This document shows, piece after piece, positions 7,013 through 39,259 of a stretch of 64,000 bases of DNA. The translations under genes and the position numbers were made by a program. Each line of letters opens with the position of its first letter. Position 1 is the first letter of the stretch. Origin of the DNA: Alistipes sp. (GTDB lineage Bacteria > Bacteroidota > Bacteroidia > Bacteroidales > Rikenellaceae). Under the pieces are notes generated by a model that made no database searches, was not told where the DNA came from, and worked only from the letters and a program-made list of their open reading frames with translations. The stretch covers positions 145,722 through 209,721 of the forward strand of contig JAFYQI010000002.1 in assembly GCA_017547175.1 (NCBI GenBank), written 5' to 3'.

Positions 7013-7028
7013 ATAATAGTGTAGGTAT

Positions 7029-7430: not shown

Positions 7431-7501
7431 GCGGCCCAGCGGACTCCAACGCCCGACCCATTGGGCACATAGTAGCCATATAACTCATAATCGTGACAGC
7501 A

Positions 7502-7549
7502 ATATAAAAAGCGAAGTTGCACCACATGTTAACCATGGGTGCAACTTCG
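7502..7549 (-). terminator. terminator of the UPF0597 gene
   Basis: 12-bp stem CGAAGTTGCACC / GGTGCAACTTCG (7512-7523, 7538-7549), with a T-tract on the minus strand. Confidence 0.6.
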
Positions 7550-7590
7550 TCTTGTAGCATAACGACCGACTAGTCGTCAAGAAATACTTT

Positions 7591-8877: not shown

Positions 8878-8909
8878 AGGTTTGGGATTGTGTGTATATG
8901 TTAAATATG

Positions 8910-9587: not shown

Positions 9588-9610
9588 CGTAAATCGTGTT
9601 ATATTAAAGG

Positions 9611-10051: not shown

Positions 10052-10090
10052 ACCCTTAAGCTATTAATGTTTCGTAAATATAGTGATTTT

Positions 10091-11365
10091 TTATAAAAAA
10101 CGCGACATGCGGTAAAAAAGCGTCGGGAAATAGTCCAGGCGATCGTTGCCCAAATAGACGGCAACGACCCGCTTCACGGGATCGACAAAGACCACCTGAC
10201 CATGCAGGCCATAGGCAAAGAAGCACTCCGTGGGGACCCTCAAAGTCCAAAGGCCGTTTTCGCCCTGCGTTGCACGCATCTTGTCGATCGGATAGCCCTC
10301 TCGCTGATGTGCCGCCAACATCACTTCGGCCAGCTCCTCGGTGCGGAATTCATGGCGGTCGTCGTACTTAATACGCCCGGGCACCGTGCGCCACGAGTTC
10401 GTGTACCAGCCGTTGGCCGAAGCACACTCCTGCGAGAAGGAGCGATCGACCCACTCCTTGCTCACGATGCGCTCGCCCTCCCACTCTCCGCCATGCAGAT
10501 AAAGGCGACCGAAACGGGCCATATCGCGTGGAATGGACGAAAGACCTCCATAGGCCTTGGCGAAGCAATGCTCCTTGTCGTCGAGGTTCATCAGTGCATA
10601 GCGCTCCATGCCGATCGGCTGCCAAACCCACTCTTCGAGCAGCTCCGCGTAACGACGACCCGTAGCGCGCTCCAAGACTGCACCCAGGATGGCCGTTGCC
10701 ATCGAGTTGTATTCGAACTCCGTACCGGGCTCTTTCTTGAACTTTTGTTGCGTGATTTGGCGCTGGATGTTACGTCCGTAGTGTAGACGCGCCATTCCGC
10801 TGAAGGGATTCGAGGCGTAGTTTTCCGAGAAGGCCAGTCCGGTGCGCATGTCGAGCAGATCCTCGATCGTCAGGCGTGCGAACTCGGGCGCTTTATCGCT
10901 TAGTTCGGGCCAATACTTTGTAACGGGATCCTCCACGGTGCCGATATAACCCTTGTCGAGGGCTATGCCCACCAGGAGCGAGGTGACGGACTTCGTGACC
11001 GAAAAGACAGTCGTATGCTGATCGGGGGCCACCATGCCGCGATAGTGCTCAAAAAGAATCGTATCGTTGCGCACCACTACGATACCCGCCGAGGGGTGCT
11101 TGCTGTCGAGCGTGTCGATCATCTGACGCAGGGTCAGCGGCTCCTCACAACGAGCCACCTTTAGACGGAGCGTATCGAGCACCGAAGACTCAGCTACGGC
11201 AAAGCGGAAGGGGCTCTCTGCGGCGTGGATCGTGTCGATCGGGAAGGTCTTGAAATCGTCAATACCCTCCGTTCCATACTTCACAAAACGGTAGGCGATG
11301 CAACTCTGCATCGACGCCATCAGGACCAGACCCAAAAACAGGTTACGAATCATGTTTCGCATCAT
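10091..11365 (-). CDS. serine hydrolase, beta-lactamase/transpeptidase-like family
   Basis: SxxK motif in FSVTKSVTSLLVG, plus a signal peptide. The start overlaps the helicase stop, so a later Met is possible. Confidence 0.8.
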   Translation of the reverse strand: MMRNMIRNLFLGLVLMASMQSCIAYRFVKYGTEGIDDFKTFPIDTIHAAESPFRFAVAESSVLDTLRLKVARCEEPLTLRQMIDTLDSKHPSAGIVVVRNDTILFEHYRGMVAPDQHTTVFSVTKSVTSLLVGIALDKGYIGTVEDPVTKYWPELSDKAPEFARLTIEDLLDMRTGLAFSENYASNPFSGMARLHYGRNIQRQITQQKFKKEPGTEFEYNSMATAILGAVLERATGRRYAELLEEWVWQPIGMERYALMNLDDKEHCFAKAYGGLSSIPRDMARFGRLYLHGGEWEGERIVSKEWVDRSFSQECASANGWYTNSWRTVPGRIKYDDRHEFRTEELAEVMLAAHQREGYPIDKMRATQGENGLWTLRVPTECFFAYGLHGQVVFVDPVKRVVAVYLGNDRLDYFPTLFYRMSRFL

Positions 11366-23964: not shown

Positions 23965-24037
23965 GCCTCTTTAGCTCAGTTGGTAGAGCACGACACTCTT
24001 AATGTTGGGGTCCAGGGTTCGAGCCCCTGAGGGGGTA
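23965..24037 (+). tRNA. tRNA-Lys (anticodon CTT) with a non-canonical 3' acceptor strand
   Basis: Hand-folded cloverleaf: D arm GCTC/GAGC, anticodon loop CTCTTAA, T arm CAGGG-TTCGAGC-CCCTG. Acceptor GCCTCTT pairs with AGGGGGT through three G.U pairs. Confidence 0.8.
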
Positions 24038-25577
24038 CTTGAAGAGACTTTTCTGAAAAATCTGAAGAGTCTCTTTTCTTTTGCCCTCGTAACTCATTGG
24101 TTTGCAGGTATATTAAATCAAGCACCTTGTTGTAAGAGTTGGTTCGATATGATTTTCCATCAAAATCAAATTTTTCGGGGAACATCACACCAATAAGCTC
24201 TCGTTTGGCATCCAAACGACCCTCCTTAATCACGTGTGAAAGATTGTTAATCAATGACATAGCATACTTGATTTGTGGTTCGAAATCAGCACACTGAGGG
24301 TTTTTCAACATATCAAGTTTGGTTAAACACGCCTGTTTTTCTGCTAACACCCTCTGTTTCACTTCATTATATGTATCTGCATCAATTTTATCATCCAAAA
24401 ACTTATTGGTCGCAGCAGTCAATCTTGCCTCGTGTTGTAAAATTTCTTCCTCCACTTTTGCTATCTGGCTTCGGGAAACTATCCTGCTTTCTCCCTGAAT
24501 ATCTCTTATTACTTCCCTGTATAGGCTAATTATGGCATAGTTTGGAATAAGGGCTGAAAGATAACGAGCGAAATCATCATTTGCCTTATCAGCCCTGCAT
24601 CGTAGGTGCTTTGCATCCTTGCTGCAATGGTAGTAATAGTATTTACCTCCATTGCCTGTGCTTGCGCTACCTGTCATTGTTGCCCCACATTGCGGACAAC
24701 GCAGATACTGACGCAGGAAAACATCAGGATGTGTTCGTTTGGTTAATTTGGGTCTATACTTTTTATCAACTATTGATTGTACCTTTTCGAATGTGTCCCT
24801 ATCAATCAGTGGCTCGTGCAACCCCTTTACATAATGAGCAGGGATAACTCCAATTTTCTGGTCTTTGTATTCTGGCACATATATCTCTCCTACATAAAAT
24901 CTGTTACGGAGCATTTTTAGGAAAGAATTCTTGTGTATGTAGTGCCCTCGGCGAGCAAATAGTTTCTGTATGTAACATGGAGTATAAACACCTTTTGCCA
25001 CCTCGGCAAACATCTCTCTGATGATAGGGGCTTTCTCCTTATCTATCTCAACATACTTATGCTCATCATCTATTTGTCGGTTAATATAACCTCTTGGGGC
25101 TTTGTATGTACATTTACCCTTCTCTAATGATGCGTGGATACCCTCTTTGGTTCTACGGGAAATTTTTGTATCCTCTGATTGTGCCATTGAAATATATAGG
25201 GAGAGCATAGTGATGTAGTCAGATGCATTGAAATCAATGTTTTGTTCCACGCTATTCACCTCAATACCTAACTTCTCAAAATAATCCAGATTGATTAAAG
25301 CCTCTTTAAGATTACGTGAATATCTATCCCAGCGATAGACCAATACATAATCAATCTCGTGCTTATGTGCCTTGCAGAATTTCATCAAAGCTTGAAACTC
25401 AGTTCTCTTCTTAAAACCTGACTTTGCAGATTTATCCTCTTTATATACTGCTACTACGTTGTAGTGCTTCATCTCACAATAACGGCGGAGATAGTCCTCC
25501 TGCCAATTGAGAGAACTGCCTTTTTCCTGCTCCTCTGTTGAAACACGGCAATACAGAATTACATTTTTAATTTCCAT
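23976..25577 (-). CDS. large serine recombinase (integrase)
   Basis: Resolvase catalytic domain VILYCRVSTEEQ...YRWDRYSRN, recombinase domain, zinc ribbon CPQCG...YYYYHC, coiled-coil. The last ~20 codons are antisense to tRNA-Lys. Start is ATG 25577, or 25607. Confidence 0.85.
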   Translation of the reverse strand: MEIKNVILYCRVSTEEQEKGSSLNWQEDYLRRYCEMKHYNVVAVYKEDKSAKSGFKKRTEFQALMKFCKAHKHEIDYVLVYRWDRYSRNLKEALINLDYFEKLGIEVNSVEQNIDFNASDYITMLSLYISMAQSEDTKISRRTKEGIHASLEKGKCTYKAPRGYINRQIDDEHKYVEIDKEKAPIIREMFAEVAKGVYTPCYIQKLFARRGHYIHKNSFLKMLRNRFYVGEIYVPEYKDQKIGVIPAHYVKGLHEPLIDRDTFEKVQSIVDKKYRPKLTKRTHPDVFLRQYLRCPQCGATMTGSASTGNGGKYYYYHCSKDAKHLRCRADKANDDFARYLSALIPNYAIISLYREVIRDIQGESRIVSRSQIAKVEEEILQHEARLTAATNKFLDDKIDADTYNEVKQRVLAEKQACLTKLDMLKNPQCADFEPQIKYAMSLINNLSHVIKEGRLDAKRELIGVMFPEKFDFDGKSYRTNSYNKVLDLIYLQTNELRGQKKRDSSDFSEKSLQVPPQGLEPWTPTLRVSCSTN

Positions 25578-25734
25578 AACTATCTCCAATTGTTTTATTA
25601 TCTTCATTATTAAGTGCCTTCAATGCGATGTTTGCAACGGCATATAAATATTCTCTTACTTCTTTTACTTGGCTATCATCGAGCCTTAATCCATTGTCTT
25701 TTAGAATGTTTTTGCATACTTCGATACTAAGCAT
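25567..25734 (-). CDS. candidate 55-aa protein translationally coupled to the recombinase (possible accessory/directionality factor)
   Basis: MLSIEVCKNILKDNGLRLDDSQVKEVREYLYAVANIALKALNNEDNKTIGDSYGN. Its TAA (25567-25569) overlaps the recombinase ATG (TATGGAAATTAA). Confidence 0.35.
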   Translation of the reverse strand: MLSIEVCKNILKDNGLRLDDSQVKEVREYLYAVANIALKALNNEDNKTIGDSYGN

Positions 25735-26258: not shown

Positions 26259-26885
26259 CTATATTCCAAACTCCTTCTTAACTCGCTGTACGGTCGATAC
26301 CGATACACCACATATTGCAGCCGTATCACGGATACTTTTGCCCGCCTTCAATGAGCGAATGACCTTGCCGTACTCCTCTTGCTTGCGCTCTCTGCTCTTT
26401 ATCGAGCCGAGCTTGCGACCCATCTTTATACCTTTTACCTTTGCCAACTCTCGACCCGAATTCAATCGGTAACGAATGCTATCACGCTCTATCTCGGCAA
26501 AGCTACTCAATACAGCAGTAATCATCTTGGCAATGGGATTGGGTTGTCCATCGGCATTGAGGGTACAGAGCGGCAAATTTTGGATATAGACATTCACACC
26601 CGCCTTCGTCAGCTCGTCAATGGTATTTACAACAATCTTTGTCGAGCGTCCCAAACGACTGATTTCAGAAACGCATAGTGTGCCAATGCGGTTCTCGATG
26701 CAAAACTCTATGCACTCAGTGAGGACGGGGCGGTTCTCCTTCGCTCCGCTCATCTTCTCCTCGTATGTTGCTACCAGCTCCATTTCGTTGATGGCGATAT
26801 GTCGCTTCAAATCCTCTACCTGACGCTCGGTATTTTGTCTGTCACTCTCACTGCTCACACGAGCATAAATCACTGCCGTTGCCAT
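26259..26885 (-). CDS. small serine recombinase (resolvase/invertase family)
   Basis: AVIYARVSSESDRQNTERQ catalytic N-terminus and C-terminal HTH (IRDTAAICGVSVSTVQRV). Confidence 0.9.
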   Translation of the reverse strand: MATAVIYARVSSESDRQNTERQVEDLKRHIAINEMELVATYEEKMSGAKENRPVLTECIEFCIENRIGTLCVSEISRLGRSTKIVVNTIDELTKAGVNVYIQNLPLCTLNADGQPNPIAKMITAVLSSFAEIERDSIRYRLNSGRELAKVKGIKMGRKLGSIKSRERKQEEYGKVIRSLKAGKSIRDTAAICGVSVSTVQRVKKEFGI

Positions 26886-26936: not shown

Positions 26937-27242
26937 TTAAGCGGGATTGCTATACTCTGCCTGTACTCGTTCCTTGTATTGGTCACATCGCTCGACCATA
27001 CCATCTATAACCGCTACGAGATTGTCGCAATAGACCATTTCTTCAACTCTATTGTCTGCCAATCGTACCTCGAATAAGTCGAGCGCATCGTTGTAGATAA
27101 CCTCAACCCTGCCCTTGTAGAGAAAGCCATCGACTTCAAACGCCAACCCACTATCATCAGGCAGTGCTGTGGGGTGATGAAAACCCCACGAAAACACCAC
27201 CATCAACTGACTGCGAAGTATCGCTATAATGTACTCTGCCAT
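26937..27242 (-). CDS. hypothetical protein (101 aa)
   Basis: Same-strand run with a 4-nt gap to the next ORF. No motif recognised. Confidence 0.55.
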   Translation of the reverse strand: MAEYIIAILRSQLMVVFSWGFHHPTALPDDSGLAFEVDGFLYKGRVEVIYNDALDLFEVRLADNRVEEMVYCDNLVAVIDGMVERCDQYKERVQAEYSNPA

Positions 27243-27246
27243 AGAT

Positions 27247-27579
27247 TTAGAATACTTGGATTAGATTCTCGTAGCGCAATGAGCGGTAACCACCCTTTTC
27301 TACATCCCAATACTTGATGGTGTTCACTTGGTCACCGCTCAAGCCCCTGCCGTTCTGTGTAGCTTTCATCAGCTGACCATTGCAAGAGCCCCAAGCCTCA
27401 CGAATTTCGCCCGTGCTCTGCTTCTTGTAGAGGAAGTGTGCCACGCCATTCTTCAACTTCTCCTTAAGCAAGTCAATCATCTGCGCCTTAACCACGCCCA
27501 TCGCCGCACTACCTGTACGAGCAAAAATAACATTAGCACGATGTGCTGTCATTGAGTTTACTACAACCATTGTCTCCAT
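27247..27579 (-). CDS. small SH3-barrel-like protein, DUF2693-like
   Basis: FLYKKQSTGEIREAWG...IKYWDVEKGGYRSLRYENLIQV resembles DUF2693 proteins of Bacteroidales mobile elements (from memory). Confidence 0.5.
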   Translation of the reverse strand: METMVVVNSMTAHRANVIFARTGSAAMGVVKAQMIDLLKEKLKNGVAHFLYKKQSTGEIREAWGSCNGQLMKATQNGRGLSGDQVNTIKYWDVEKGGYRSLRYENLIQVF

Positions 27580-27611
27580 ATCTGTATGATTTTTTATTAC
27601 ATCTAAACTTT

Positions 27612-27806
27612 TTAATAACTTCTTCTAATCTGCTTTGGTTCACCCCAACCATTCAGGCGATATACCTCACGTACAGCCTCCTCGTACGAATATACATCCT
27701 TAACAAACGATGCCATCGTTCCTGTCTCAGATACCATCGTGTACAGCCAAATCCCCCACAGATTATAGTGGCGACCAAACTTGTATTTTCCAACTTCTAC
27801 CTTCAT
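27612..27806 (-). CDS. hypothetical protein (64 aa)
   Basis: First gene of the minus-strand run, directly downstream of the divergent AT-rich promoter region. Confidence 0.45.
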   Translation of the reverse strand: MKVEVGKYKFGRHYNLWGIWLYTMVSETGTMASFVKDVYSYEEAVREVYRLNGWGEPKQIRRSY

Positions 27807-27819
27807 AGTTTATCATCCT

Positions 27820-27843
27820 TTTGTATTACAAATATAATACAAA
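27820..27843. promoter_or_regulatory. operator-like palindrome TTTGTATTA-N6-TAATACAAA
   Basis: Perfect 9-bp arms in the divergent intergenic region next to an HTH gene. Confidence 0.4.
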
Positions 27844-27958
27844 TAAATTATATAAACAAATATTCAACTCGATTTTATAATAAAATCATATAATTTTTAT
27901 GATATTTTTATGGCTATATAATAATTGTTTTGTATTTTTACTGAAAATATGGACTAAT

Positions 27959-28276
27959 ATGAACGGATTAGAGCTTGAAAAGACCTATTTTGAGGAGCAC
28001 GCTATGGAGATGCTTACTGCGGCCAATATGACAAAGGCTCAGTTTGCAAGGGCTATGGATATACTACCCCAAAATATCAATAAACTTATTTCAACCAAGA
28101 ATGTGCTAATGCTCATTAAGGTATCTACGGTATTGGATATTCCCATCCAAGTATTGATATATGGAGAGCAGGAGGATGAGCCTCAGACTGATTTGCACGG
28201 TTGCATCTATATAAACAATGTACCTCACATTTTCAATAATAGAGAAGAGTTGGATGAACTACTAAAACAGGAGTAA
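27959..28276 (+). CDS. XRE-type helix-turn-helix protein
   Basis: MTKAQFARAMDILPQNINKLIS is an HTH_3-like core. ATG 27959 preferred over the track start. Confidence 0.6.
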   Translation: MNGLELEKTYFEEHAMEMLTAANMTKAQFARAMDILPQNINKLISTKNVLMLIKVSTVLDIPIQVLIYGEQEDEPQTDLHGCIYINNVPHIFNNREELDELLKQE

Positions 28277-28337
28277 GTTCATGAATTGCGCATTTTGAGT
28301 AAGAAGCATTTAGATTATCCAAACAACAATTGATACT

Positions 28338-31010
28338 ATGAAAAACATCCCCTATAACGAAATATGGTACACTACACGTAATCATGATGTTCTCAAGAGT
28401 TTTGATATGTATGTATTTGGCTCACAACTTTTATCTAATACATATGAGAAAGGAATGGGGGTATTACGATTTAACACAGATTTAACTATTATAGGGGAAT
28501 CTGCATTTTCTCTATGTAATGAATTAGTGACAGTGGAGCTACCCGACTCTATTACTAAAATTGATGTAGGAGCATTCTCCGCTTGTGAGAATTTGAAAGA
28601 ATTTAAAGTGCCAGATAGTGTCAAGGAGATAGGAGAATGCGCTTTTGGGCTATGTGTAAACTTGGAAAAATTCAGTGGTAAGTTTGCGTCAATAGATGGA
28701 TTGTGCCTTATTGTCAATGGTATTCTTAATCAGTTTGCCCTTGGATGTGGTTTGAAAGAATATACTATTCCAAACGATGTTAGAGAGATTGGATGGAGTG
28801 CGTTTTCAGATAGTGAGTTAACTAAAATTAATTTGCATGAAAATATAATTAAGATTTGTCATAGTGCATTTTGTGGTTGTCAAAATTTAACATATATCAA
28901 TATTCCTAATAGTATTACAACCATTGCGGATGTCGCTTTCCAAGATTGTATTAACCTCAAAAATATATTTATTCCTAAGACGGTTACCAATTTAGGAAGC
29001 GAGATATTTGAAGGTTGCAATAACATTTTGGTGAAATATGAGGATGAAAGTATTAAGATTTCAAAGGACAAGGGATTAAAACAACTTTTGGAAGAATACG
29101 TTGCTTTACAGAAAGATGTACCTAATGGTTGGATATATTCTGGTGATAAAACAGCAAAAATAATACATGTTCCCTATGGCGTTACATTGGTAAAATCAGA
29201 AGCATTTGAGGGTTGTGATAATGTTGAAGTTATACATTTACCACAAACCATTGAAGAAATAGAGGACGGAGCATTTACAGATTTGGACAACTTGTATCGC
29301 TTCGAGAGCGATTATGCCTCTCCTGATGGGAAATGTTTAATTATCAAAAATACCTTAGTTGGTTTTGCGGCAAAAGACATTGAGGAATATGAGCTCCCAA
29401 CAGGCTTTGCGAAGGTCGCTCCCATGGTTTTCTATAACAAAGAACAAATAAAAACAATCATCATCCCCGAAGGCGTTCTTTCTATAGGGGATGAAGCTTT
29501 TATGGGGTGCCTTAATCTATACCATATAAAGCTACCTTCGAGTCTTAATTTTATTGGTTACAAAACCTTTGCTGACTGCATCTCTCTAAGGAAGATAGTT
29601 GTACCTAATAGCGTTAAAGTAATTTGTGGTAATAATTTTCAAGGTTGCGAACATTTAGAAGAAGTAACATTATCTGACAACTTAATAGCCCCTAACGAAA
29701 GTCTCTTTGGCGGATGTAATAATCTAAAAAAACTTAAATGTAAATTTGGTTCAAAGGATGGCAGATGTTGTATTATCAATGGTGTATTAACAGACTATTT
29801 TGGTACACGCTCAATATCCGAATATGTTATTCCGAATGAGGTTGAAAGTATAGCAAAATTTGCATTCCGCCATGATGAGCACTTGCAAAAAATAATTATA
29901 CCCGCCTCTGTTACCCAAATTGATGATAATGCATTTTTCTCATGTAGTAAATTAAAATATGTAGAATTTGAAACAATAACCCCACCAATATTTGGTGAAA
30001 ACATATTTTCCCAAACTGCATTACTTGCGATTTATGTTCCTGACGAAGCTATTTCTGTATATGAAAAAGTATTTAAGAAAACTAAAGCCAACGCATGTGT
30101 TGTTGCAAAATCAAAAAGCAATAATTGGCTGAAAGAAGTTGCTTTTGGAGATGCATACAATAATGAAATATCAATGGAGGCTTTATGGAGTATTGGTGTT
30201 TGTTGCTACAAAGAAAGAAAAACAAAAGAGGCTTATGCTATTTTCGAGAAATTAATTGCTCGAGGGGAAAGCGATAGCTACCCTTACTCGATACTCATTG
30301 AGGCATATCGTAATCGTCAAGACATAGAAAACGAGAAAAGAATTCTTACTATGGCTTTAAAGAATCTGCCTAATAGAGGCAATTCTCACCACGAATACCA
30401 AAAACGCTTAAACACTTTATCTGCCAAAACTCAAGAATACAAATTACCCACAATTGCAGAGATTCCCCAAATTTCCATTAAGCATGGTGAATTATATGAA
30501 GAGGAACTATTTAAATTGCCTGAGTTTAATTTTTACACAGAGGGAAGTGGATTGCCTATCAGTTGGTATGAACGAGAAATCGTAATGCAACCAATCGGAG
30601 ATATAATAGACTACTTTAAAGAGCTTATCCATGAAGCAGAGTTAGCAACAAGCATTAAAGATTATCAAAAAGCAGCTTTCATATATGAGCAAATAATTGC
30701 TGAAAAATATTGGAAACCAGCCCCGTATGACAAATTGATATTAATATATTCCCGAGCAATGTTATTGGATGACGAAATTAGAGTTCTCAAATTAAGTATA
30801 GACCATTTTACTAAACTTAGAGCAAAACGACATCAGTATATTATGGCATTAGCGGAAAAATATAATGCTCTTGATTATATCGAAAAGAAAAAGAAAACAA
30901 CGGGGCGAATAAATTATTATTATGGATGGAAAGGAGATATTTGTCTATATGATTCATATCCTGCAATTGATAAATGGATAAAAAGACTCGAAAAGAAATT
31001 AAAGCAGTAA
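28338..31010 (+). CDS. cytoplasmic BspA-type LRR protein with C-terminal TPR-like helical domain
   Basis: No signal peptide or lipobox. About 590 aa of LRR_5 repeats (LPDSITKIDVGAFSACENL ...), then about 300 aa of helical repeats (EAYAIFEKLIARGE..., YQKAAFIYEQIIAEKY...). Confidence 0.8.
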   Translation: MKNIPYNEIWYTTRNHDVLKSFDMYVFGSQLLSNTYEKGMGVLRFNTDLTIIGESAFSLCNELVTVELPDSITKIDVGAFSACENLKEFKVPDSVKEIGECAFGLCVNLEKFSGKFASIDGLCLIVNGILNQFALGCGLKEYTIPNDVREIGWSAFSDSELTKINLHENIIKICHSAFCGCQNLTYINIPNSITTIADVAFQDCINLKNIFIPKTVTNLGSEIFEGCNNILVKYEDESIKISKDKGLKQLLEEYVALQKDVPNGWIYSGDKTAKIIHVPYGVTLVKSEAFEGCDNVEVIHLPQTIEEIEDGAFTDLDNLYRFESDYASPDGKCLIIKNTLVGFAAKDIEEYELPTGFAKVAPMVFYNKEQIKTIIIPEGVLSIGDEAFMGCLNLYHIKLPSSLNFIGYKTFADCISLRKIVVPNSVKVICGNNFQGCEHLEEVTLSDNLIAPNESLFGGCNNLKKLKCKFGSKDGRCCIINGVLTDYFGTRSISEYVIPNEVESIAKFAFRHDEHLQKIIIPASVTQIDDNAFFSCSKLKYVEFETITPPIFGENIFSQTALLAIYVPDEAISVYEKVFKKTKANACVVAKSKSNNWLKEVAFGDAYNNEISMEALWSIGVCCYKERKTKEAYAIFEKLIARGESDSYPYSILIEAYRNRQDIENEKRILTMALKNLPNRGNSHHEYQKRLNTLSAKTQEYKLPTIAEIPQISIKHGELYEEELFKLPEFNFYTEGSGLPISWYEREIVMQPIGDIIDYFKELIHEAELATSIKDYQKAAFIYEQIIAEKYWKPAPYDKLILIYSRAMLLDDEIRVLKLSIDHFTKLRAKRHQYIMALAEKYNALDYIEKKKKTTGRINYYYGWKGDICLYDSYPAIDKWIKRLEKKLKQ

Positions 31011-31032
31011 ATAACGCCTAAACATTAATATT

Positions 31033-32460
31033 ATGAAAGAACTAAGATGCCCAAAATGTGGCACATCATTTACTATAGATGAAGCAGACTATGCTTCTAT
31101 TCTAACTCAAGTCAGAAATGTAGAATTTGAAGAGGAGCTACAAAGAAGAACAGAAGAGGTTAATGCTCAACATGAAGTTGAGTTGGAGATAATTAAAGCC
31201 AAAAGCGATAAAGAATATGCCAATAAACTTGCGGAGAAAGCCCTCGAATCAAGTAAAAAGGACAATGAGATAGCAAAGCTCAATGAGCAAATCAACTCTT
31301 TAACTCTAACAAAGGATTTAGAGATTAAGAGTGAATTGGCAAAGAAAGATGCCGAGATTGCGAAATTGCATGAGCAGATTAATAACATTGCCCAAAGCAA
31401 GGAGTTAGAGTTTAGAAATGAGTTAGCACAAAAAGAAGAACAGATTTCTAAACTTAAAATAGACTTAACAGAAGCTGATGCCCATCTTAAGCTTGCGATT
31501 TTAGAAGAACAAAATCGTTCGAAGGAAGCAATAACTAATAAGGAAGCTGAAATTATTGAGTTGCGTAATATGGTTAAAACGGCTAAGAATGAAGCAATTA
31601 TTAGCGAAAATAACCTTAAGGATAAACACAAGGCAGAACTTCGAATAGCACAAGAACAGATAGAGTTTTATAGAGATTTAAAGAGTCGCATGTCTACCAA
31701 GATGGTCGGTGAAACATTAGAGGAGCACTGCCAAGTTGAATTTGAGCGTATGTTGCGTCCTCATTTGCCATTTGCGTATTTTGAGAAAGACAATGATGCG
31801 AGAGGAGGCAGTAAGGGGGATTTCATTTTTAGAGATTTTGATGACGGCGTAGAGTATGTATCTATAATGTTTGAAATGAAAAATGAATCTGATACAACTG
31901 CTACCAAACACAAAAATGAGGACTTTTTCAAGAAACTTGATGATGACAGGAAAGCTAAAAATTGCGAATATGCAGTTTTAGTATCGCTATTGGAAGCTAA
32001 TAGCGAGTTATATAATACAGGAATTGTTGATGTATCACATCGTTATGATAAGATGTATGTTGTACGCCCACAATTTTTCGTTCCTTTAATAACATTGCTT
32101 GTCAAAGCATCAAGAAAGAGTATTGAATACAAACGAGCGTTAGCAGTAGCCCAGAATCAGTCTGTTGATATAACAAATTTTGAAGAACGCCTGGCAGATT
32201 TTAAGGATAAGTTTGGTAGGAATTATCGTTTAGCAAGTGAGAAATTTCAGGTTGCAATCAAAGAGATTGACAACTCAATTGCTCATTTGCAAAAAATTAA
32301 GGATGCATTAATTGGTTCAGAGAATAATCTTCGTTTAGCAAATGACAAAGCAGAGGATTTGACAATTCGCAAATTAACTCATAAAAATCCGACAATGTCT
32401 CAAAAGTTCAAAGAAGAGAGAATGAGGAAAAGTGGAGATTATGAGATATTAGAAGATTGA
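31033..32460 (+). CDS. DUF2130 family protein (zinc ribbon, coiled-coil, PD-(D/E)xK-like C-terminus)
   Basis: [21 protein letters not shown]-terminus, long coiled-coil, GDFIFRDF...[10 protein letters not shown] nuclease-like motif. Confidence 0.75.
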
Positions 32461-32481
32461 TGAGTGATTTTTAAAATTAAC

Positions 32482-33213
32482 ATGTCACAAACTATGTATA
32501 ACGCTAATAAACTGTATGCGAACATTATTCCGCTATATCACATACATAGAGATAGTGCGTCATCTAATCACGCTATATTGAATTCGGAGAGGAGATGGGA
32601 GCAGTTTATTCCTACTAATTTCATATATGCATTTTTTACATTTAATACATTATATAATGTAGATTGGGAGCAGAGTTTAAAAATTGGACACAAGTGGATA
32701 ATTCTAAATAATAGAGGAGACCTATATGAGTTCGATAAAATCGAACAATATATTAACTTTTGTTGCAAGGAAGAAGAATTTCTTAAAATATATAAAGATT
32801 TTTTTAGAAAATATGTAACACATCGTTATCCATCATGTCAAGTTTTATCAGAACTACACAAAATACAGGTTGATAAACCTCTTTCTAATGGAAGGATACG
32901 GAAGAAGAGTATAGTTTCTTCTTTTCTCGATGCTTGTCATAATTTTCTAGAATACGACAATTTTGATAAACATTTTATAAAAGAAGTAGCAAGGTTCGTA
33001 TATTATATTCGATGTAATCTTTTTCATGGCGTAAAAACTATGGACATGCTTAACGACTCAGCTCAACAAATAAGATTAGAAATATATACATTGTTCATTA
33101 TAGCCATAAACCAAATGGTATTTTCTTACATTGAATACCTAAATGGGTGTGATATTAACAAAAGTTTCTCGGCACTAATTGATGTGCTGAAGTGGAAGAA
33201 TTGTGAGCTGTAA
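32482..33213 (+). CDS. hypothetical protein with HEPN-like Rx4H motif
   Basis: All-helical looking. FVYYIRCNLFHG carries R-x4-H. GTG 32464 is an alternative start, 4 nt after the upstream stop. Confidence 0.5.
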   Translation: MSQTMYNANKLYANIIPLYHIHRDSASSNHAILNSERRWEQFIPTNFIYAFFTFNTLYNVDWEQSLKIGHKWIILNNRGDLYEFDKIEQYINFCCKEEEFLKIYKDFFRKYVTHRYPSCQVLSELHKIQVDKPLSNGRIRKKSIVSSFLDACHNFLEYDNFDKHFIKEVARFVYYIRCNLFHGVKTMDMLNDSAQQIRLEIYTLFIIAINQMVFSYIEYLNGCDINKSFSALIDVLKWKNCEL

Positions 33214-33269
33214 AAGCATAAACTTGAAGAGAAAATAATTTGTAAAATTATCATCTTTTGGTGATAAAA

Positions 33270-34448
33270 ATGAAAGATAAAACAGCGTATAAAGCATTGG
33301 AAAGTATTGCCGAGGATATATCTCTATCAAGGCTTGCAAAGAGCATTGGTAAAGATAAGAGCTGGCTATATCACAAACTGAAGAATGATATTGTCAATGG
33401 AGTTGAATATCGTTTCAATGTTTCTGAGTATGCTTTATTGGCAGAGCGACTTCACAAACTTGCAGAGGATATACATAGATGTGCAGAAGAGTTGGATAGC
33501 GTAGTACAAGATGCCAACCGAACAGCAGGAAGGTATTATACAAATGAGAATGTATTTGAATATCCATTATTCAAAGAGTGGCTCAAACTTATACCTGAAT
33601 TGGAGAGAACAACCATATTAGAACCTTTTGCAGGAGAATGTTCCATACCAAAAATGCTTGAACAATATGGTTTTAAGTGGAAATGTTACGATATTGAAGG
33701 AGGAGATAATGTTGTTAAGAGAGATACAATAAGCAATTTCCCGAAAAATCATAGAGTTTGTATCACCAACCCTCCATATCTTGCGAAAAACTCTGCCACA
33801 AGACGAGGGTTGCAATACCCTGATTGTGAGTTTGACAACATTTATAAGTATTGTTTGAAGCTGATGTTGGATAATTGTCAGTATGTTGCTGCTATTATAC
33901 CTGATAGTTTTATTCAATCAGGATTGTTTACCGATAGATTATATGGGGTTATATCTCTTCCTGAAAAGGTTTTTGAGGATACAGAGTACCCCGTTTGCCT
34001 TGCGATGTTTTCTCCAAAGAAGAGTGCCGATTTTGCGATATGGCGTGGAGATACCTTTTTAGGTAGTTATAGAGAGCTATCTAAAACTGCACTTTTGGAG
34101 TATCGAGATGAGCGATGGGTGTTTAACGATGAGAATGGTAGTATTGGAGTAATATGCGCTGACGGCAACAAGAGTCGTATCCGATTTGTCAAGGGTGAGG
34201 AGATAGACAGCGAGATTAAGGAGAGTAGTAGATTTTTGGTGCGAGTATCAGGATTGCCTGATGATATAGACCGAGATACATTCATCGAGCGTTGCAACAC
34301 CATCTTGGAGCAATACCGAGAAATCACAAAGGATATTTTCCTCAACTCATTCAAAGGATTGAGAAGTGACGGAATGTATAGAAAGAGAATCCCGTTTAAG
34401 GTGATACGTTTGATATTGACTTATGCGTTGGAGCGGATGATAGTCTGA
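33270..34448 (+). CDS. N6-adenine DNA methyltransferase (motif I then motif IV order)
   Basis: ILEPFAGECS (motif I-like) and CITNPPYL (NPPY motif IV). N-terminal ~100 aa are HTH-like. Confidence 0.75.
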   Translation: MKDKTAYKALESIAEDISLSRLAKSIGKDKSWLYHKLKNDIVNGVEYRFNVSEYALLAERLHKLAEDIHRCAEELDSVVQDANRTAGRYYTNENVFEYPLFKEWLKLIPELERTTILEPFAGECSIPKMLEQYGFKWKCYDIEGGDNVVKRDTISNFPKNHRVCITNPPYLAKNSATRRGLQYPDCEFDNIYKYCLKLMLDNCQYVAAIIPDSFIQSGLFTDRLYGVISLPEKVFEDTEYPVCLAMFSPKKSADFAIWRGDTFLGSYRELSKTALLEYRDERWVFNDENGSIGVICADGNKSRIRFVKGEEIDSEIKESSRFLVRVSGLPDDIDRDTFIERCNTILEQYREITKDIFLNSFKGLRSDGMYRKRIPFKVIRLILTYALERMIV

Positions 34449-34538
34449 TAATTCTTTGAATAATACGAATACTAAAAACGGCAGACTCTCAAAAGGGTCT
34501 GCCGATTTTTCTGAATACACCGACAACTTGAATACACC

Positions 34539-35507
34539 CTAAATTAAAATTCCGAGTAAAATAGTTATCTCTATTAGAAGGTTTCTCAGGATTGTCTTAA
34601 TTGATTTAGGGTTATTATCAATCTTCTCTGCCAGTATGCGAAAAGGTTTCATTACCTTACTGATGTGAGTCTTGGGGGATAGGTGCTGGCGCAACAATGC
34701 CTCAACTTTAACTAAATCCCCACCGCAATGCTCCAGCAACAAAAGGTTTTTCAATTCAGAAAGGCTATGTCCAGTAGTAGCATCCCCAACCTCAACCAGT
34801 GCCTTATCCAACATAGACCAAATTGGATTAGCATCAGAGTCGAGCACTGAGTTAAGAGATGTATCAGGGATGTTTAATGCTCGTCTTAGTTGCTCCTTAG
34901 CGTTGAGGTTTAATTCAAATCGTACCTTATCCTTAAAGTAATCTTGCAACTTTTCCCTATCCGCTACGGTGTCCATAAATTTTCGGTTACTGGCACGTTG
35001 CAACTCAGCCTCCTTGTCATAAATGGTTAGACGCTGCTTGTAGGATTTGGTAACGACATTCTTTTCAATGATTAGGTTGTCATTGATATTACGAGTAAGA
35101 TATTTCTTGAAATTACATACACTTGCTCGTATAGCAGAAGATAATTCATTGCAGTTGGGATAATGAATATCTAATGCAACATCAGCCTTGACCACTTCGG
35201 CATCAGTCAAAATTTTATCAATATCTAAATTACAAAATCCTAATTGATTGATATGGTCTAAACATATATGAATGTTATTCTGATTAATTAGTTGAGGGTA
35301 ATCATCTCCGAGAATTTTACCAGTAAATTCTATTACTAATTCTCTTTCTATACAATCAATTTCTACATATAAAAGATATGGATTAGTAATAGTAATTTTA
35401 TATTCAGAAATACATCCATCTCTTAATATACATTTGAACTTAGAATAATCGAGTATCTCTACATAATCAATTTGAGATACAATTTTTAATTTATCAAATT
35501 TTATCAC
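34539..35507 (-). CDS. hypothetical protein, possible replication initiator (Rep_trans-like)
   Basis: QRLTIYDKEAEL resembles the conserved YDK block of replication initiation factors. Function is uncertain. Confidence 0.4.
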   Translation of the reverse strand: MIKFDKLKIVSQIDYVEILDYSKFKCILRDGCISEYKITITNPYLLYVEIDCIERELVIEFTGKILGDDYPQLINQNNIHICLDHINQLGFCNLDIDKILTDAEVVKADVALDIHYPNCNELSSAIRASVCNFKKYLTRNINDNLIIEKNVVTKSYKQRLTIYDKEAELQRASNRKFMDTVADREKLQDYFKDKVRFELNLNAKEQLRRALNIPDTSLNSVLDSDANPIWSMLDKALVEVGDATTGHSLSELKNLLLLEHCGGDLVKVEALLRQHLSPKTHISKVMKPFRILAEKIDNNPKSIKTILRNLLIEITILLGILI

Positions 35508-35767
35508 TTCTTCATATTTTTATTCTTTTTATTATTTATAATACTCCCCAGAAAACAAAAAACTTAACCTTGATAAGTGGTTATAACTTGACTTTTTCTA
35601 CATCCTATATATAATTATATGGGAATAGAATTATAAAGTCAATGAAAAGTTGGTTGAGATGTGTCCTTATTGTAAATTTCGGGGTTAGGAATAAGATACC
35701 TAAGATTCCAAATGCGCATCAAATCATCTTGAAATTCTTTCGAAAACAGAACATCAAGGGGTACAGA

Positions 35768-35800
35768 AGCGAGAATCGAAAGATTCTCGCTTTTTGTTTT
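35768..35800 (+). terminator. orphan rho-independent terminator
   Basis: AGCGAGAATC-GAAA-GATTCTCGCT followed by TTTTGTTTT. No credible plus-strand CDS lies upstream. Confidence 0.5.
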
Positions 35801-36106: not shown

Positions 36107-36142
36107 TAGAAAATAGACCCTTTGGAATTGCAACGAAAAGCT

Positions 36143-37051
36143 ATGGATCAGCCGAAAATTGAGCGTGTGCTGCGTCTGATGAAGATGATGACGGGCAACA
36201 ACAACTACACCGTGGAGGATATGGCCGAGCGACTCGGTATCTCCTATCGGTCGGTGTATCGTTACATCGAGACCTTTAAGGAGGCCGGATTCGTTGTGCA
36301 ACGCAAAGAGGGCGGCATCTATAAACTCGGTAAGGAGAGCCGCTACTTCAAGGATATCTCGCAGCTCATCCACTTTACCGATGAGGAGGCTCACATGGTC
36401 AACCAACTCATCGAGGGTCTGGACAATACCAATATGCTCAAGCAGAACCTCCGCAAAAAACTCACGGCTATCTATAACTGCACTTCGCTTGCCGATAGTG
36501 TGGTCGAAGGCAAGAACGCAATTAATGTCAATCGCGTAATAGAGGCCATCAACGACCAAAAACAGGTCATTCTTCGCAGCTATGCATCATCACATACGGG
36601 CGTAGTTCGCGACCGCCTGGTTGAGCCGTTTGGTTTTACGACCAACTATGTGCAGATCTGGTGTTATGAGCCGGAATCGGGACTCAACAAACTCTTTAAT
36701 GCGGCCCGTGTAGGAGCAGTAGAGGTGCTGAACGATGATTGGAAGTTTGCCGACAAACATCACGAAGGCTACATCGACATCTTCCGCATTACGGGCTTTG
36801 AGCAGAAATGCGTGCAGCTGGAGTTGGGCGTAATGGCGCACAACCTCTTGATCGAAGAGTATCCGTTGGCAACTCGCGACCTCACACCGATCGACGACTC
36901 ACATTGGCTACTCGACACGATGGTCTGCAACTATGTCGGCATTGGTCGTTTCGTAATGGGACTCTCGGAGGATATCAAGATACTCACTCCCGAGTTCAAT
37001 GAATATATAGAGACTACAATTAATCGCTTACATAGCAATTATCATCGTTAG
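36143..37051 (+). CDS. WYL-domain transcriptional regulator (HTH + WYL)
   Basis: IERVLRLMKMMTGNNNYTVEDMAERLGISYRSVYRYIETFKEAGF is an HTH_11-type N-terminus. The central region (RDRLVEPFGFTTNYVQIWCY) is WYL-like. Confidence 0.8.
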   Translation: MDQPKIERVLRLMKMMTGNNNYTVEDMAERLGISYRSVYRYIETFKEAGFVVQRKEGGIYKLGKESRYFKDISQLIHFTDEEAHMVNQLIEGLDNTNMLKQNLRKKLTAIYNCTSLADSVVEGKNAINVNRVIEAINDQKQVILRSYASSHTGVVRDRLVEPFGFTTNYVQIWCYEPESGLNKLFNAARVGAVEVLNDDWKFADKHHEGYIDIFRITGFEQKCVQLELGVMAHNLLIEEYPLATRDLTPIDDSHWLLDTMVCNYVGIGRFVMGLSEDIKILTPEFNEYIETTINRLHSNYHR

Positions 37052-37094
37052 AATTGTCATTGACAGAAATTGACAATTTAGGCTCATACCTTTG
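37052..37094 (+). repeat. operator/promoter-like repeat, copy 1
   Basis: AATTGTCA-TTGACAGAAAT-TGACAATT inverted repeat. The unit CATTGACAGAAATTGACAATT...TACCTTTG (37058-37094) starts 6 nt after the WYL stop. Confidence 0.6.
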
Positions 37095-37095
37095 T

Positions 37096-37125
37096 CCCTG
37101 CGATCAGATGGTTGCAGGGATTTTT
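37096..37125 (+). terminator. terminator of the WYL gene
   Basis: CCCTGC-GATCAGATGGTT-GCAGGG followed by ATTTTTG. Confidence 0.6.
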
Positions 37126-37157
37126 GTTTACATAGTCTAATTTAACAAAAATATATC

Positions 37158-37194
37158 CATTGACAGAAATTGACAATTCGCACCAGTACCTTTG
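37158..37194 (+). promoter_or_regulatory. operator/promoter-like repeat, copy 2, with -7 box TACCTTTG
   Basis: CATTGACAGAAATTGACAATT is identical to copy 1 and offset by exactly 100 bp. TACCTTTG at 37187-37194 matches TAnnTTTG. Confidence 0.6.
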
Positions 37195-37198
37195 CAGT

Positions 37199-37573
37199 AT
37201 GAAAACAACTAAAAACAATACAATTATGGAACACAACACTATTGACAAGCATTTGGGCAATTTCAACATTGCGGGTTTTACATTTTGGGATGGATATGAG
37301 GCATTTGGAGATCTTAAAGTCGGCACTTCCTTGCATCTGGTACGAGAGGCGGATAACAAGTTCGATCCTTATGCGGTGGCTATTTACTATAAGGATACCA
37401 AGCTTGGTTTCATTCCTCGTGGCGAGAATCAGCTGGTAGCGCAGTTTATGGATCTTGGCTACAATATGATCTTTGATCTCCGCGTGCAGCGTATCTGTCC
37501 AGACGCACACCCAGAAAAGCAAGTGGGGGTAATGCTCCGTCTTAAGGAGGCAAATAAGGTGTTTAATAAATAA
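37199..37573 (+). CDS. HIRAN domain protein
   Basis: FNIAGFTFWDGYEAFGDLKVGTSLHLVREADNKFDPYAVAIYYKDTKLGFIPRGEN matches the HIRAN pattern. ATG 37199 lies 4 nt after the -7 box (leaderless?); alternative ATG at 37226. Confidence 0.7.
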   Translation: MKTTKNNTIMEHNTIDKHLGNFNIAGFTFWDGYEAFGDLKVGTSLHLVREADNKFDPYAVAIYYKDTKLGFIPRGENQLVAQFMDLGYNMIFDLRVQRICPDAHPEKQVGVMLRLKEANKVFNK

Positions 37574-37592
37574 TATGTAGGAGGCATAGATT

Positions 37593-38270
37593 ATGGAGAC
37601 AAAGAAAACGCAGGTTTACAACCTTATTATTTTGGACAAGAGCGGATCAATGGAGAGTATCCGTAAGGCTGCCATTGATGGCTACAACGAGACTCTTGGC
37701 TCAATTAAGGCAGCTCAGCTCAAGCATCTCGACACACAGGAACACTTCATTTCGCTAGCTGCATTTTGTGGTTGCGGTGTAGATATGATCTACGATTGCA
37801 CTCCTATTAAGGATGCGGAAAAACTCACAAAGGCGAAGTATGATCCATGCTGCTGCACTCCTCTCTATGATGCGATCGGCAGATGTATTAAGGCATTGGC
37901 AAAGAAGACCGACAAAATTGAGGATGCCGCTGTGCTAGTTACTATCATTACAGATGGTGAGGAGAATGCCTCAGTAGAGTGGACTGGCCCAGCCATTAAG
38001 AGACTTATCGACGAGCGCAAGGAAGAGGGATGGATGTTCTCCTATATCGGTGCGGACCACGATGTAGAGAGCGTTGCAGCAAGCATCTCTATTACCAACA
38101 CTGTTGTATGGACCAAAACGACCGAAGGAACAGAGGCTGTGATCTGTAATGAGAATGAGGCTCGTGAGCGATTCTACGATAAGATGGATGCATGCTGCGC
38201 ACCTTGTGCAAGCGTACATGAGAGAAAGCGAATGCGCAAACAATTTTCGGAAGAGTATTATAAAAAGTAA
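37593..38270 (+). CDS. von Willebrand factor type A (vWA) domain protein
   Basis: MIDAS elements ILDKSGSM, CCTPLYDAIG, ITDGEENAS. No signal peptide. Confidence 0.8.
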   Translation: METKKTQVYNLIILDKSGSMESIRKAAIDGYNETLGSIKAAQLKHLDTQEHFISLAAFCGCGVDMIYDCTPIKDAEKLTKAKYDPCCCTPLYDAIGRCIKALAKKTDKIEDAAVLVTIITDGEENASVEWTGPAIKRLIDERKEEGWMFSYIGADHDVESVAASISITNTVVWTKTTEGTEAVICNENEARERFYDKMDACCAPCASVHERKRMRKQFSEEYYKK

Positions 38271-38275
38271 AAGTT

Positions 38276-39259
38276 ATGAATTTAGATATCACATTATCAA
38301 TTACCAAGAAGCAGGAGGCGCAGCACAACACCTTTCTGCTTAGGTGGAATCCCGCAATATCGTCATACACCATGGATCATCTTGATGATGATATGTCAGA
38401 GTGGGCGGATAGCCGTTGGTGGGATGACGACTTTGATTGGAGCGTCTATGAGTGGCAGAAGGCTCGAAAGGGCGATCGTTTCTTTATGGTGCGTGTAGGA
38501 GAGGGCAATACGGGTATTTTTGCTGCGGGCCGCTTTACATCCGAGCCATATAAAAGCGAGGATTGGTCTGGCAAAGGTCGCGAGGTCTATTATATGAAGA
38601 TGGAGTTTGAGGCGGTATTCCACCCGGAGCGTTCGGAGATTATCTCTACTGAGGATCTGGAGCGAGAGTTACCACATCTCGATTGGCGCAAAGGACATTC
38701 TGGCCAGCTGCTTGAAAAGGAGGATGCAGTTCGCCTGGAGCTGATGTGGCGCGATTTCGTGGGCCGCAATAAGACAATGTTCCTACCTCGCGCTCTGAAG
38801 AATGAGGACTACGACTCTCGTTCAGACATAGACAAGGCTATCGAGTTTGCCTCAAAGGCGCACGCTGCAGACTACGACCTCGATGGCAACCCAACCATCC
38901 TGCACCCGCTGGCGGTAGGTATGATGGGCCAAAACGACACCGAACGTATCGTAGGCTTTCTACACGACGTGGTCGAAGACACGAAATACGACTTTGATGA
39001 CTTGATCGACATCGGATTCTCGTCAGAAGTTATAGCCGCTTTGCGCCTCTTGACCCATGACAAGCGAACTCCATATATGGAGTATGTGGCACAGATCTGC
39101 AAATCAAACAACCGAACCGCCATTCATGTAAAAATGAATGATCTGCGCCACAACCTGGCTCGTGGCAAGGCTGGTGGACATATGCGTTGTGTCGAGAAGC
39201 ATACCATAGCCCTACAGTATATGGAGGATTATCTCCTACAACATAGCCTCACAGATTAG
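38276..39259 (+). CDS. fusion of a PUA-like (EVE/ASCH-type) domain and a RelA/SpoT-type HD (p)ppGpp-hydrolase domain
   Basis: C-terminus ILHPLAVGMM...VGFLHDVVEDT...MNDLRHNL is the HD_4 signature. N-terminus FLLRWNP...GDRFFMVRVG...GIFAAGRFTSEPY looks like a PUA-type barrel (this part is inferred). Confidence 0.7.
   Translation: MNLDITLSITKKQEAQHNTFLLRWNPAISSYTMDHLDDDMSEWADSRWWDDDFDWSVYEWQKARKGDRFFMVRVGEGNTGIFAAGRFTSEPYKSEDWSGKGREVYYMKMEFEAVFHPERSEIISTEDLERELPHLDWRKGHSGQLLEKEDAVRLELMWRDFVGRNKTMFLPRALKNEDYDSRSDIDKAIEFASKAHAADYDLDGNPTILHPLAVGMMGQNDTERIVGFLHDVVEDTKYDFDDLIDIGFSSEVIAALRLLTHDKRTPYMEYVAQICKSNNRTAIHVKMNDLRHNLARGKAGGHMRCVEKHTIALQYMEDYLLQHSLTD

Follow-up and report, generated by a model that had tools for sequence, protein, structure and literature searches.

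Whether four co-directional genes in an AT-rich tract of an Alistipes sp. genome form one defence system, or are separate modules assembled by a mobile element, is the question raised by positions 28338-34448 of the stretch analysed here (64,000 nucleotides of contig JAFYQI010000002.1, hereafter the window). The genes, referred to as g1 to g4, encode a BspA-type leucine-rich repeat (LRR) protein, a DUF2130 protein, a HEPN-like protein and a DUF5053-containing N6-adenine methyltransferase, respectively (Table 1). An earlier sequence-only reading had taken them for a restriction-modification (R-M)-like module, with the DUF2130 protein as nuclease, g4 as methylase and g1 as sensor, expanded by a HEPN effector, and had allowed as a fallback that the methylase might be an orphan of the element. 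The comparisons made here point to a different arrangement, which is considered probable: the block combines variable cargo (g1-g3) with one backbone gene (g4) of an integrative element of about 11.6 kb. The four genes are likewise best regarded, at a similar level of confidence, as independent modules of a probably co-transcribed mosaic cargo and not as a single conserved defence system.

Both the AT-rich setting and the spacing described earlier were confirmed, with a GC content of 31-36% across 28-34 kb of the window against 52-58% in the flanks, and with four same-strand genes separated by 22 nucleotides (g1-g2), 21 nucleotides, or 3 nucleotides with the GTG start of g3 (g2-g3), and 56 nucleotides (g3-g4). 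Because homologues were found for all four, they represent real genes and not chance open reading frames. The terminator-like hairpin directly 3' of g4 is the sole such site on the plus strand within 27500-35700, and this position, together with the co-directional order and the short gaps, indicates that g1-g4 are probably carried on one transcript under the helix-turn-helix (HTH) regulator. A sigma-70 promoter scan returned 38 sites versus 38.0 in shuffled sequences and hence no excess, and no Bacteroidetes-type TAnnTTTG motif was detected in the intergenic gaps. None of g1-g4 matched a system model of PADLOC-DB 2.0 at E<=0.01, while no NCBIfam model was matched by g2, g3 or g4 and no PHROG model by g3.

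Co-occurrence of the four gene families

The complete four-gene set was observed only in near-identical copies (L006-L009 and L182-L185, L denoting the compared loci), of which L006 shows 97.5% nucleotide identity to the window and L182 and L183 also share its chromosomal context; all of these are the same element and are therefore not independent evidence. The genome and metagenome scans covered at most 80 loci each, with one genome per species in the genome collection, and among 79 DUF2130 loci none contained a nearby g3 or g4 homologue or an adjacent g1-like gene. Weak LRR-repeat matches were present in 3 of the 79, lying about 5 kb off in both loci checked. DUF2130 was absent from the g4-family loci (about 90 examined), and g3 homologues were found in eight other contexts, independent of g1, g2 and g4. 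A single four-gene system was accordingly rejected, as the families do not co-occur outside the near-identical copies among the loci scanned, and the R-M-like module of the sequence-only reading falls with it.

The integrative element and its cargo slot

The AT-rich element is of the serine-recombinase type and extends from a tRNA-Lys gene to a gene for a replication initiator (Rep) that converges on g4. Its backbone genes recur in related loci, such as the large serine recombinase, with a 43% identical homologue in the same position in L003; the small resolvase, with homologues in L003, L098-L101 and L186-L189; the WYL_2 protein, 94% identical in L003 and 64% in L098; the Rep, with a 37% identical homologue in L098 and L101; and the HTH gene, which occupies the same place in L005, L098 and L188. 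The last of these had been called an XRE-type HTH gene, and the gene is indeed present upstream of the block, but its product is XRE-like only weakly (HTH_26 0.01; PHROG transcriptional regulators 5e-6). The cargo slot lies between the HTH gene and the DUF5053-methylase gene and holds R-M systems in L186-L189, as does the matching post-HTH slot in L003 and L005. Across these loci the backbone is conserved and the cargo varies, and the enzymatic roles assigned to the products are predictions from sequence. No element of this type was found in IMG/VR, where g4, Rep and the g3 family have no relatives, or described in the literature searched. As a Bacteroidales element family with a recognisable slot, running from the HTH gene to the DUF5053-methylase gene, it could be mined for new defence genes.

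The 3' end of the large serine recombinase gene reads into the tRNA-Lys gene on the opposite strand, its last approximately 20 codons being tRNA antisense, and the junction of the element may accordingly be placed within or next to that tRNA gene. No direct repeat marking the element ends was found.

Table 1. Positions of the block, of the surrounding element and of selected genes in compared loci
Feature	Sequence	Position	Strand	Remarks
tRNA-Lys(CTT)	window	23965-24038	+	ARAGORN; Rfam tRNA 61.6 bits; left edge of element
Large serine recombinase (integrase)	window	23976-25607	-	Resolvase 1.5e-28, Recombinase, Zn_ribbon_recom
Small serine recombinase/resolvase with C-terminal HTH	window	26259-26885	-	Resolvase 3.1e-33; backbone
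101-amino-acid backbone protein	window	26937-27242	-	Function unknown; 56-72% identical homologues in L003, L005, L098-L101
WYL_2 (Sm-like SH3) backbone protein	window	27247-27579	-	PF10902 7.1e-17
64-amino-acid backbone protein	window	27612-27806	-	44-48% identical homologues in L003-L005
XRE-like HTH regulator	window	27899-28276	+	HTH_26/HTH_3 weak; heads the probable cargo transcription unit
g1	window	28338-31010	+	890 amino acids; BspA-type LRR protein; cargo
g2	window	31033-32460	+	475 amino acids; DUF2130 protein; cargo
g3	window	32482-33213	+	243 amino acids from ATG; 249 from GTG 32464; HEPN-like; cargo
Divergent patch in g3	window	32826-32975	+	150 nucleotides, about residues 115-165; 83% identity to L006 versus 97-100% in its flanks
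g4	window	33270-34448	+	392 amino acids from ATG; 396 from TTG 33258; DUF5053 + predicted N6-adenine methyltransferase; backbone
Terminator-like hairpin	window	34479-34504	+	11-bp stem, 7 GC pairs, T tail; between convergent g4 and Rep
Phage_CRI-like replication initiator (Rep)	window	34539-35507	-	PF05144 3.8e-6; PHROG 702 replication protein; right end of element
Paired promoter-like sites	window	35588-35642	both	Near-consensus
Hairpin beyond Rep	window	35765-35794		13-bp stem, T tail
Second low-GC islet	window	36122-39259		Between Rep and tRNA-Leu
327-amino-acid protein of the islet	window	38276-39259		HD-like C-terminus
g3-domain fusion (P0011)	L010	6454-7596		HD-type, (p)ppGpp-hydrolase-like C-terminus
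DUF2130 and TrlF-family ATPase pair	L192 (pNP40)	7001-10871		
DUF2130 and TrlF-family ATPase pair	L193	1093-4963		

The DUF5053-methyltransferase

The N-terminus of g4 matched DUF5053 (6.4e-14), a domain named in no paper of the literature searched, and the protein also gave weak matches to N6_Mtase and Eco57I and a match to PHROG 18657 'DNA methyltransferase' (1.7e-52). Its motifs follow the order GRYYT, EPFAG and TNPPY, succeeded by a C-terminal target-recognition region, and are invariant or nearly so, the EPFAG and NPPY motifs having been read correctly before. The structural model (predicted local distance difference test score, pLDDT, 87.6) retrieved M.TaqI (1.6e-8) and CamA (2.8e-8) in Foldseek, then M.BseCI and type I HsdM. 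Judged by its predicted fold and motifs, g4 is a gamma-class N6-adenine DNA methyltransferase.

DUF5053 versions of g4 turn up repeatedly, in four related elements whose neighbouring or cargo genes differ. A 51% identical homologue in L098-L101 is accompanied by the resolvase, the 101-amino-acid protein, WYL_2 and HTH genes, where the g4 homologue, HTH-NADAR and Rep come after a secreted LRR_5 gene on the opposite strand; a 47% identical homologue in L186-L191 occurs with resolvase, WYL_2, HTH and tyrosine integrase genes, with type III Mod and Res on the opposite strand; an 86% identical homologue in L097 comes after type I R-M, RloA/B and a SLFN/AlbA protein; and the g4-equivalent slot of L003 holds an HTH_7, weakly Dam-like, HAD protein. 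The element of L190 appears circularly permuted relative to L186-L189 (resolvase, 359-amino-acid protein, integrase, g4 homologue, Res), as would be expected of a tandem copy or of a circle after excision. Many close relatives of g4 at 68-69% identity (proteins P0023-P0037) possess an extra N-terminal HAD-phosphatase domain and reach about 566 amino acids.

The g4 family comprised 1948 matches, and relatives without DUF5053 have a different companion, a protein of about 220 amino acids encoded next to them in 52 of 81 metagenome and contig loci, mostly directly downstream. One of the two partner sequences scanned weakly matched Tsp45I (1.8e-4, below the Pfam cut-off), and the DUF5053-less methylase with this partner looks like an uncatalogued two-gene type II R-M system. 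The partner was not found in the window by tblastn or by hidden Markov model (HMM) search, and it is absent beside the DUF5053 versions. Clusters at 90% identity, compared by size, contained 160 sequences for Rep, 21 for g4, 13 for g2, 12 for g3 and 8 for g1. The recurrence with varied cargo, the lack of a cognate nuclease and these cluster sizes together indicate that g4 belongs to the backbone as an orphan methylase and is not partnered with g2. The fallback of an orphan element methyltransferase is thus the better-supported assignment.

Conserved K..D, K and GG.Q positions were observed in the partner of about 220 amino acids (L105-L181, e.g. L111 and L106). The possibility that g3 is the missing nuclease partner of g4 was considered and rejected, as the profiles of g3 (A1, A2) and of the partner gave no mutual match at E<=10 across the g4 loci and the window.

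The orphan methylase g4 would methylate a particular sequence motif in the DNA of both the element and its host, and such methylation would shield the element from restriction systems like those of the DUF5053-less relatives, or else serve element regulation. The methylase family appears to comprise two forms, one a two-gene R-M system and the other an orphan of mobile elements that is fused to DUF5053.

The HEPN-like protein and its restriction-associated family

The motif R177-x4-H182 in YYIRCNLFHG, recognised in the sequence-only reading, is present in g3, and over 66 diverse family members R177, G183 and K185 are invariant, whereas N179, F181 and H182 are conserved in at least 90%, giving the signature RxNxFHGxK, for which Pfam has no model. 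Distant members read VRNNIFHGSK, with a polar residue after the arginine, while the window subfamily reads RCNLFHG, with a cysteine after it. A word-indexed search of 5.8 billion proteins yielded only 17 relatives, so the family is rare, and a profile search of 1.84 billion representatives yielded 391 clusters; g3 was absent from the plasmid collection, which was queried with g2 and g3. The AlphaFold (AF2) model (pLDDT 89.6, predicted template modelling score, pTM, 0.89) is all-helical, and the motif at 177-182 ends the helix 163-181 and enters a loop, with a long helix (193-220) next. According to the HEPN survey, Rx4-6H is located at the end of a long helix or in the following loop, and the residue after the arginine is usually polar (PMC3710099).

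The HEPN fold that had been proposed for g3 was confirmed by no profile or structure search. No match was obtained in Pfam at E<=10 or in the PDB by phmmer or by two profiles, the best Foldseek hit in the PDB was the HEPN protein Csm6 at only E=0.64, Foldseek against BFVD returned nothing, and hhalign against lactococcal AbiF gave a probability of 0.6%; a Pfam scan of the 66 distant members produced a single match to HEPN_Swt1 (1 of 66, 0.0048). By its motif, predicted helix topology and context g3 can be termed HEPN-like, although not a proven member.

The genomic company of the family agrees with the expectation of a HEPN-like gene riding with R-M systems, since g3 homologues elsewhere follow type I, type IIG and LlaJI restriction genes. 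A homologue is located after HsdM-HsdS-HsdR, and before a gene whose translation reads as having a DUF262-like N-terminus, in L011; after a type II methylase and a 1344-amino-acid ResIII/Eco57I type IIG enzyme in L003 and L004, which carry the same element backbone as the window; after two C5 methylases, an AAA_5 protein and the LlaJI nuclease, downstream of backbone genes, in L005; four genes downstream of an HsdR-like helicase in L012; and in an island with HinfI, EcoO109I, AbiH, an SLFN helicase and Fic in L001. Like the 16 or more HEPN clades that the HEPN survey (Anantharaman et al. 2013, PMC3710099) found alongside R-M systems, the g3 family is a module met beside restriction systems of many kinds.

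Between the window and L006, g3 differs by 28 nonsynonymous and 11 synonymous codons concentrated in the divergent patch, a pattern that fits either diversifying selection on a conflict gene or gene conversion, that is, a recombined patch. The g3 product is a probable HEPN-type abortive or addiction module. It would be a latent RNase of the HEPN type, serving in abortive, second-line or addiction functions, and would act alone or loosely coupled to the neighbouring nuclease. With its 391 clusters, its RxNxFHGxK signature and its tracking of several restriction types, the family makes a good candidate for a new abortive effector linked to R-M systems.

Two kinds of longer family members were also observed. 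In P0011 of L010 the g3 domain is fused to an HD-type domain that shares 34.5% identity over 110 residues with the C-terminus of the 327-amino-acid protein of the window, which lies 5 kb from g3, and the fusion may reflect a functional link between g3 and that HD-like protein. Others, such as P0192, P0214, P0202 and P0221, are about 450-530 amino acids long and end in an uncharacterised domain in which the motifs FYPCCG.D, FHFVD, GEGGSG and LIVTDGS are conserved; P0192 and P0214 were scanned and gave no Pfam match at E<=1.

The DUF2130 protein

The g2 product is a full-length DUF2130 protein (PF09903, 6.9e-86) with a long coiled coil ahead of the nuclease-like domain, and all 36 sequences compared, which come from many phyla, retain D263 and E281-x-K283 (GDFIFRD...IMFEMKNE). 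The coiled coil and the D...ExK motif of the sequence-only reading therefore stand, but the 'zinc ribbon' is reduced to a single invariant CPxC knuckle (C6, C9) and not four clustered ligands. This coiled-coil and nuclease architecture presumably resembles RmuC. The predicted PD-(D/E)xK fold is deduced from Pfam clan membership and the invariant residues and not from a model, and no solved relative of g2 was found by sequence. DUF2130 is listed as a PD-(D/E)XK family of no known function (PMC3424549), and this survey is the only paper of the literature searched in which it appears.

The scan of one genome per species gave 595 relatives of g2, of which the best 80, at 45-65% identity, belong to Bacteroidota, Firmicutes, Proteobacteria, Actinobacteria and one archaeon. 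The 507 neighbours of 79 DUF2130 loci fall into 453 clusters, so DUF2130 is without a conserved partner, and most of the families that recur in the 124 immediate neighbours are of the housekeeping kind, with OLD/GajA-like proteins accounting for 3 of 124. DUF2130 was present on 68 plasmids of the plasmid collection and on no record of the phage collection. The lack of an obligate partner constrains hypotheses on this widespread uncharacterised nuclease family, and g2 would itself act as a solitary RmuC-like coiled-coil DNA nuclease, directed against incoming DNA or engaged in recombination.

A distinct arrangement was noticed on conjugative plasmids of Lactococcus, among them the phage-resistance plasmid pNP40, where DUF2130 is followed by an 846-amino-acid TrlF-family AAA-like ATPase (AAA_21 3.6e-8), near LlaJI, Abi, RecA and Y-family polymerase genes. 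The pair is a possible two-gene module. It was not seen in the 79 genome loci, and DUF2130 is not among the new systems published for the pNP40-type plasmidome of lactococci (Rhea, Aristaios, Kamadhenu and others).

The LRR protein

The g1 protein contains five LRR_5 stretches (Pfam 1.8e-89) and matches LRR proteins of the PDB, e.g. 4fs7 at 4.7e-37. The LRR half of its earlier description as an LRR and tetratricopeptide repeat (TPR) protein is well founded, but the TPR half is weaker than described, as TPR_6 (3.3e-4), TPR_15 (0.003) and TPR_2 (0.004) all remained below their gathering scores, the best of them, TPR_6, with 21.6 bits versus a cut-off of 26.3. The C-terminal 306 amino acids form a helical, weakly TPR-like tail with a single homologue among 5.8 billion proteins. 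No hydrophobic signal was seen at the N-terminus by inspection, in agreement with the cytoplasmic location assigned earlier, in contrast to the LRR_5 protein of L098-L101, which is of the secreted type and starts with MKKVFFSLMFAIIVSTAYAF. From its sequence, g1 would be a protein-binding module.

Alternative interpretations of the block

The alternative of a non-antiviral cargo, in which g2 is an RmuC-like nuclease of recombination or repair, g1 a BspA-like interaction protein and g3 a toxin-like addiction module stabilising the element, is judged unlikely. It draws on the housekeeping character of most DUF2130 neighbour families, the position of the lactococcal gene near RecA and Y-family polymerase, the strong purifying selection on g2 (2 nonsynonymous and 14 synonymous codon differences between the window and L006), the secreted LRR_5 cargo of L098 and the absence of any PADLOC match. 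It has to reckon with g3 homologues embedded in R-M operons and defence islands, with R-M systems in the slot of the related elements, and with the divergent patch of g3, whose nonsynonymous-to-synonymous ratio is close to neutral, a value in keeping with a conflict gene.

A new three-gene defence system of g1, g2 and g3, with a cytoplasmic LRR/TPR protein that would sense a phage protein and control the coiled-coil DUF2130 nuclease, g3 as back-up RNase and g4 an unrelated backbone methylase, appears quite unlikely, and its more specific form, an undescribed anti-phage system whose sensor gates the nuclease and is backed by a new HEPN-like RNase family, very unlikely. The gaps of 22 and 21 nucleotides with no internal terminator, the R-M systems that fill the cargo slot in L186-L189, L003 and L005, the absence of a signal peptide and the nearly unique C-terminal domain of g1, and the DUF2130 gene of pNP40 near LlaJI and Abi genes would all suit such a system, as would the place of g2 ahead of g3, where a DNA-cutting enzyme usually stands elsewhere. 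The trio, however, is confined to near-identical copies, with no adjacent LRR/TPR partner or g3 homologue at any of the 79 DUF2130 loci, none of the three matches PADLOC, the slot also accepts a secreted LRR_5 protein without an obvious defensive role, and DUF2130 mostly neighbours housekeeping families. If true, the system would provide the first assigned function for DUF2130 (COG4487), which is widespread across phyla.

The four-gene R-M-like system, with g4 methylating self, DUF2130 restricting unmethylated DNA, g3 as abortive layer and g1 as sensor, is highly improbable and already fails on comparative grounds: a methyltransferase and a PD-(D/E)xK nuclease do share one co-directional block with a single terminator, and HEPN genes are established companions of R-M systems (PMC3710099), but g2 and g4 are never together in the 79 DUF2130 or about 90 g4-family loci, the natural partner of the methylase family is the different, probably Tsp45I-like protein of about 220 amino acids, g4 homologues sit beside unrelated cargo with its own methylases (type I and type III R-M), and in L186-L191 the cargo and the g4 homologue do not share a strand.

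Several points weigh against the preferred reading of independent modules carried as cargo and backbone of one element. A functional unit of g2, or of g1 and g2, with g3 (g2-g3 or g1-g2-g3), which is rated as quite to very unlikely, is conceivable because g3 homologues usually follow a DNA-cutting enzyme, and DUF2130 here sits in the slot that restriction nucleases hold before g3 elsewhere. The g4 gene is co-directional with the cargo and begins just 56 nucleotides past g3, unlike in L186-L191; co-transcription of g1-g4 is deduced from the layout and is probable; the HEPN assignment of g3 is without confirmation from homology or fold searches; the count of Rep relative to cargo is one of 90% clusters; and rare co-occurrences may be missed under the scope of 80 loci and one genome per species. 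Read as a mosaic of cargo and backbone, the block offers a concrete example of mobile elements building operons from independent modules.

Sequence beyond the replication initiator

In the AT-rich spacer beyond Rep, a hairpin with a T tail and paired near-consensus promoter-like sites on both strands were observed (Table 1), and this region may be the element origin or attachment (att) region. A second low-GC islet follows, with genes for a WYL/HTH regulator (PADLOC WYL 3e-15), a HIRAN protein (PADLOC candidate PDC-M03B, 5e-14), a vWA-like protein of 225 amino acids and the 327-amino-acid protein. A vWA-like protein 39% identical to that of the islet is encoded near the g3 homologue of L001.

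Comparison with known systems

The individual genes can each be placed beside a known kind. Like BspA-type LRR proteins (PF13306), g1 has LRR_5 repeats and matches solved Bacteroidales and Firmicutes LRR proteins, but it lacks a signal peptide and bears a nearly orphan helical tail of 300 amino acids. With the RmuC/coiled-coil PD-(D/E)xK nucleases and the DUF2130 family (PF09903, COG4487), g2 shares the D...ExK residues and the coiled coil, whereas it is mobile-element cargo beside a HEPN-like gene and most other DUF2130 members are solitary chromosomal genes.

Compared with R-M-linked HEPN proteins (PrrC, RloC and the clades of PMC3710099), g3 has the R-x4-H motif, which its model would place at a helix end as described for HEPN, and its relatives likewise directly follow restriction or helicase-nuclease genes of several R-M types. 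It differs from PrrC and RloC in having, within 243 amino acids, no ABC-ATPase or other N-terminal domain, from R-M-linked HEPN proteins in the cysteine that the window subfamily has after the arginine in place of asparagine, aspartate or histidine and in following DUF2130 and not a recognised R-M enzyme, and from known HEPN proteins in giving no significant match to a HEPN Pfam model or a solved structure.

Orphan gamma-class methylases (the M.TaqI fold, CamA, PHROG 18657) share with g4 the motif order, the fold match and the lack of a cognate nuclease. Relative to M.TaqI/CamA-type orphans, g4 adds the N-terminal DUF5053 helical domain, to which some relatives add a HAD phosphatase, and its motif I is shortened to EPFAG, in which just one glycine is left.

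At the level of the whole element, the closest comparison is with defence-cargo integrative elements and islands, e.g. pipolins (PMC11551731), which likewise combine a recombinase and replication backbone with an exchangeable slot for R-M systems or modules. The backbone of the window, in Bacteroidales, consists by comparison of serine recombinases, WYL_2, the DUF5053-methylase and a Phage_CRI-like Rep. Against this background the block adds new members to known kinds, namely a HEPN-like family that is associated with R-M systems and lacks a model, a mobile-element methylase of the orphan type and a defence-type cargo slot on an integrative element.

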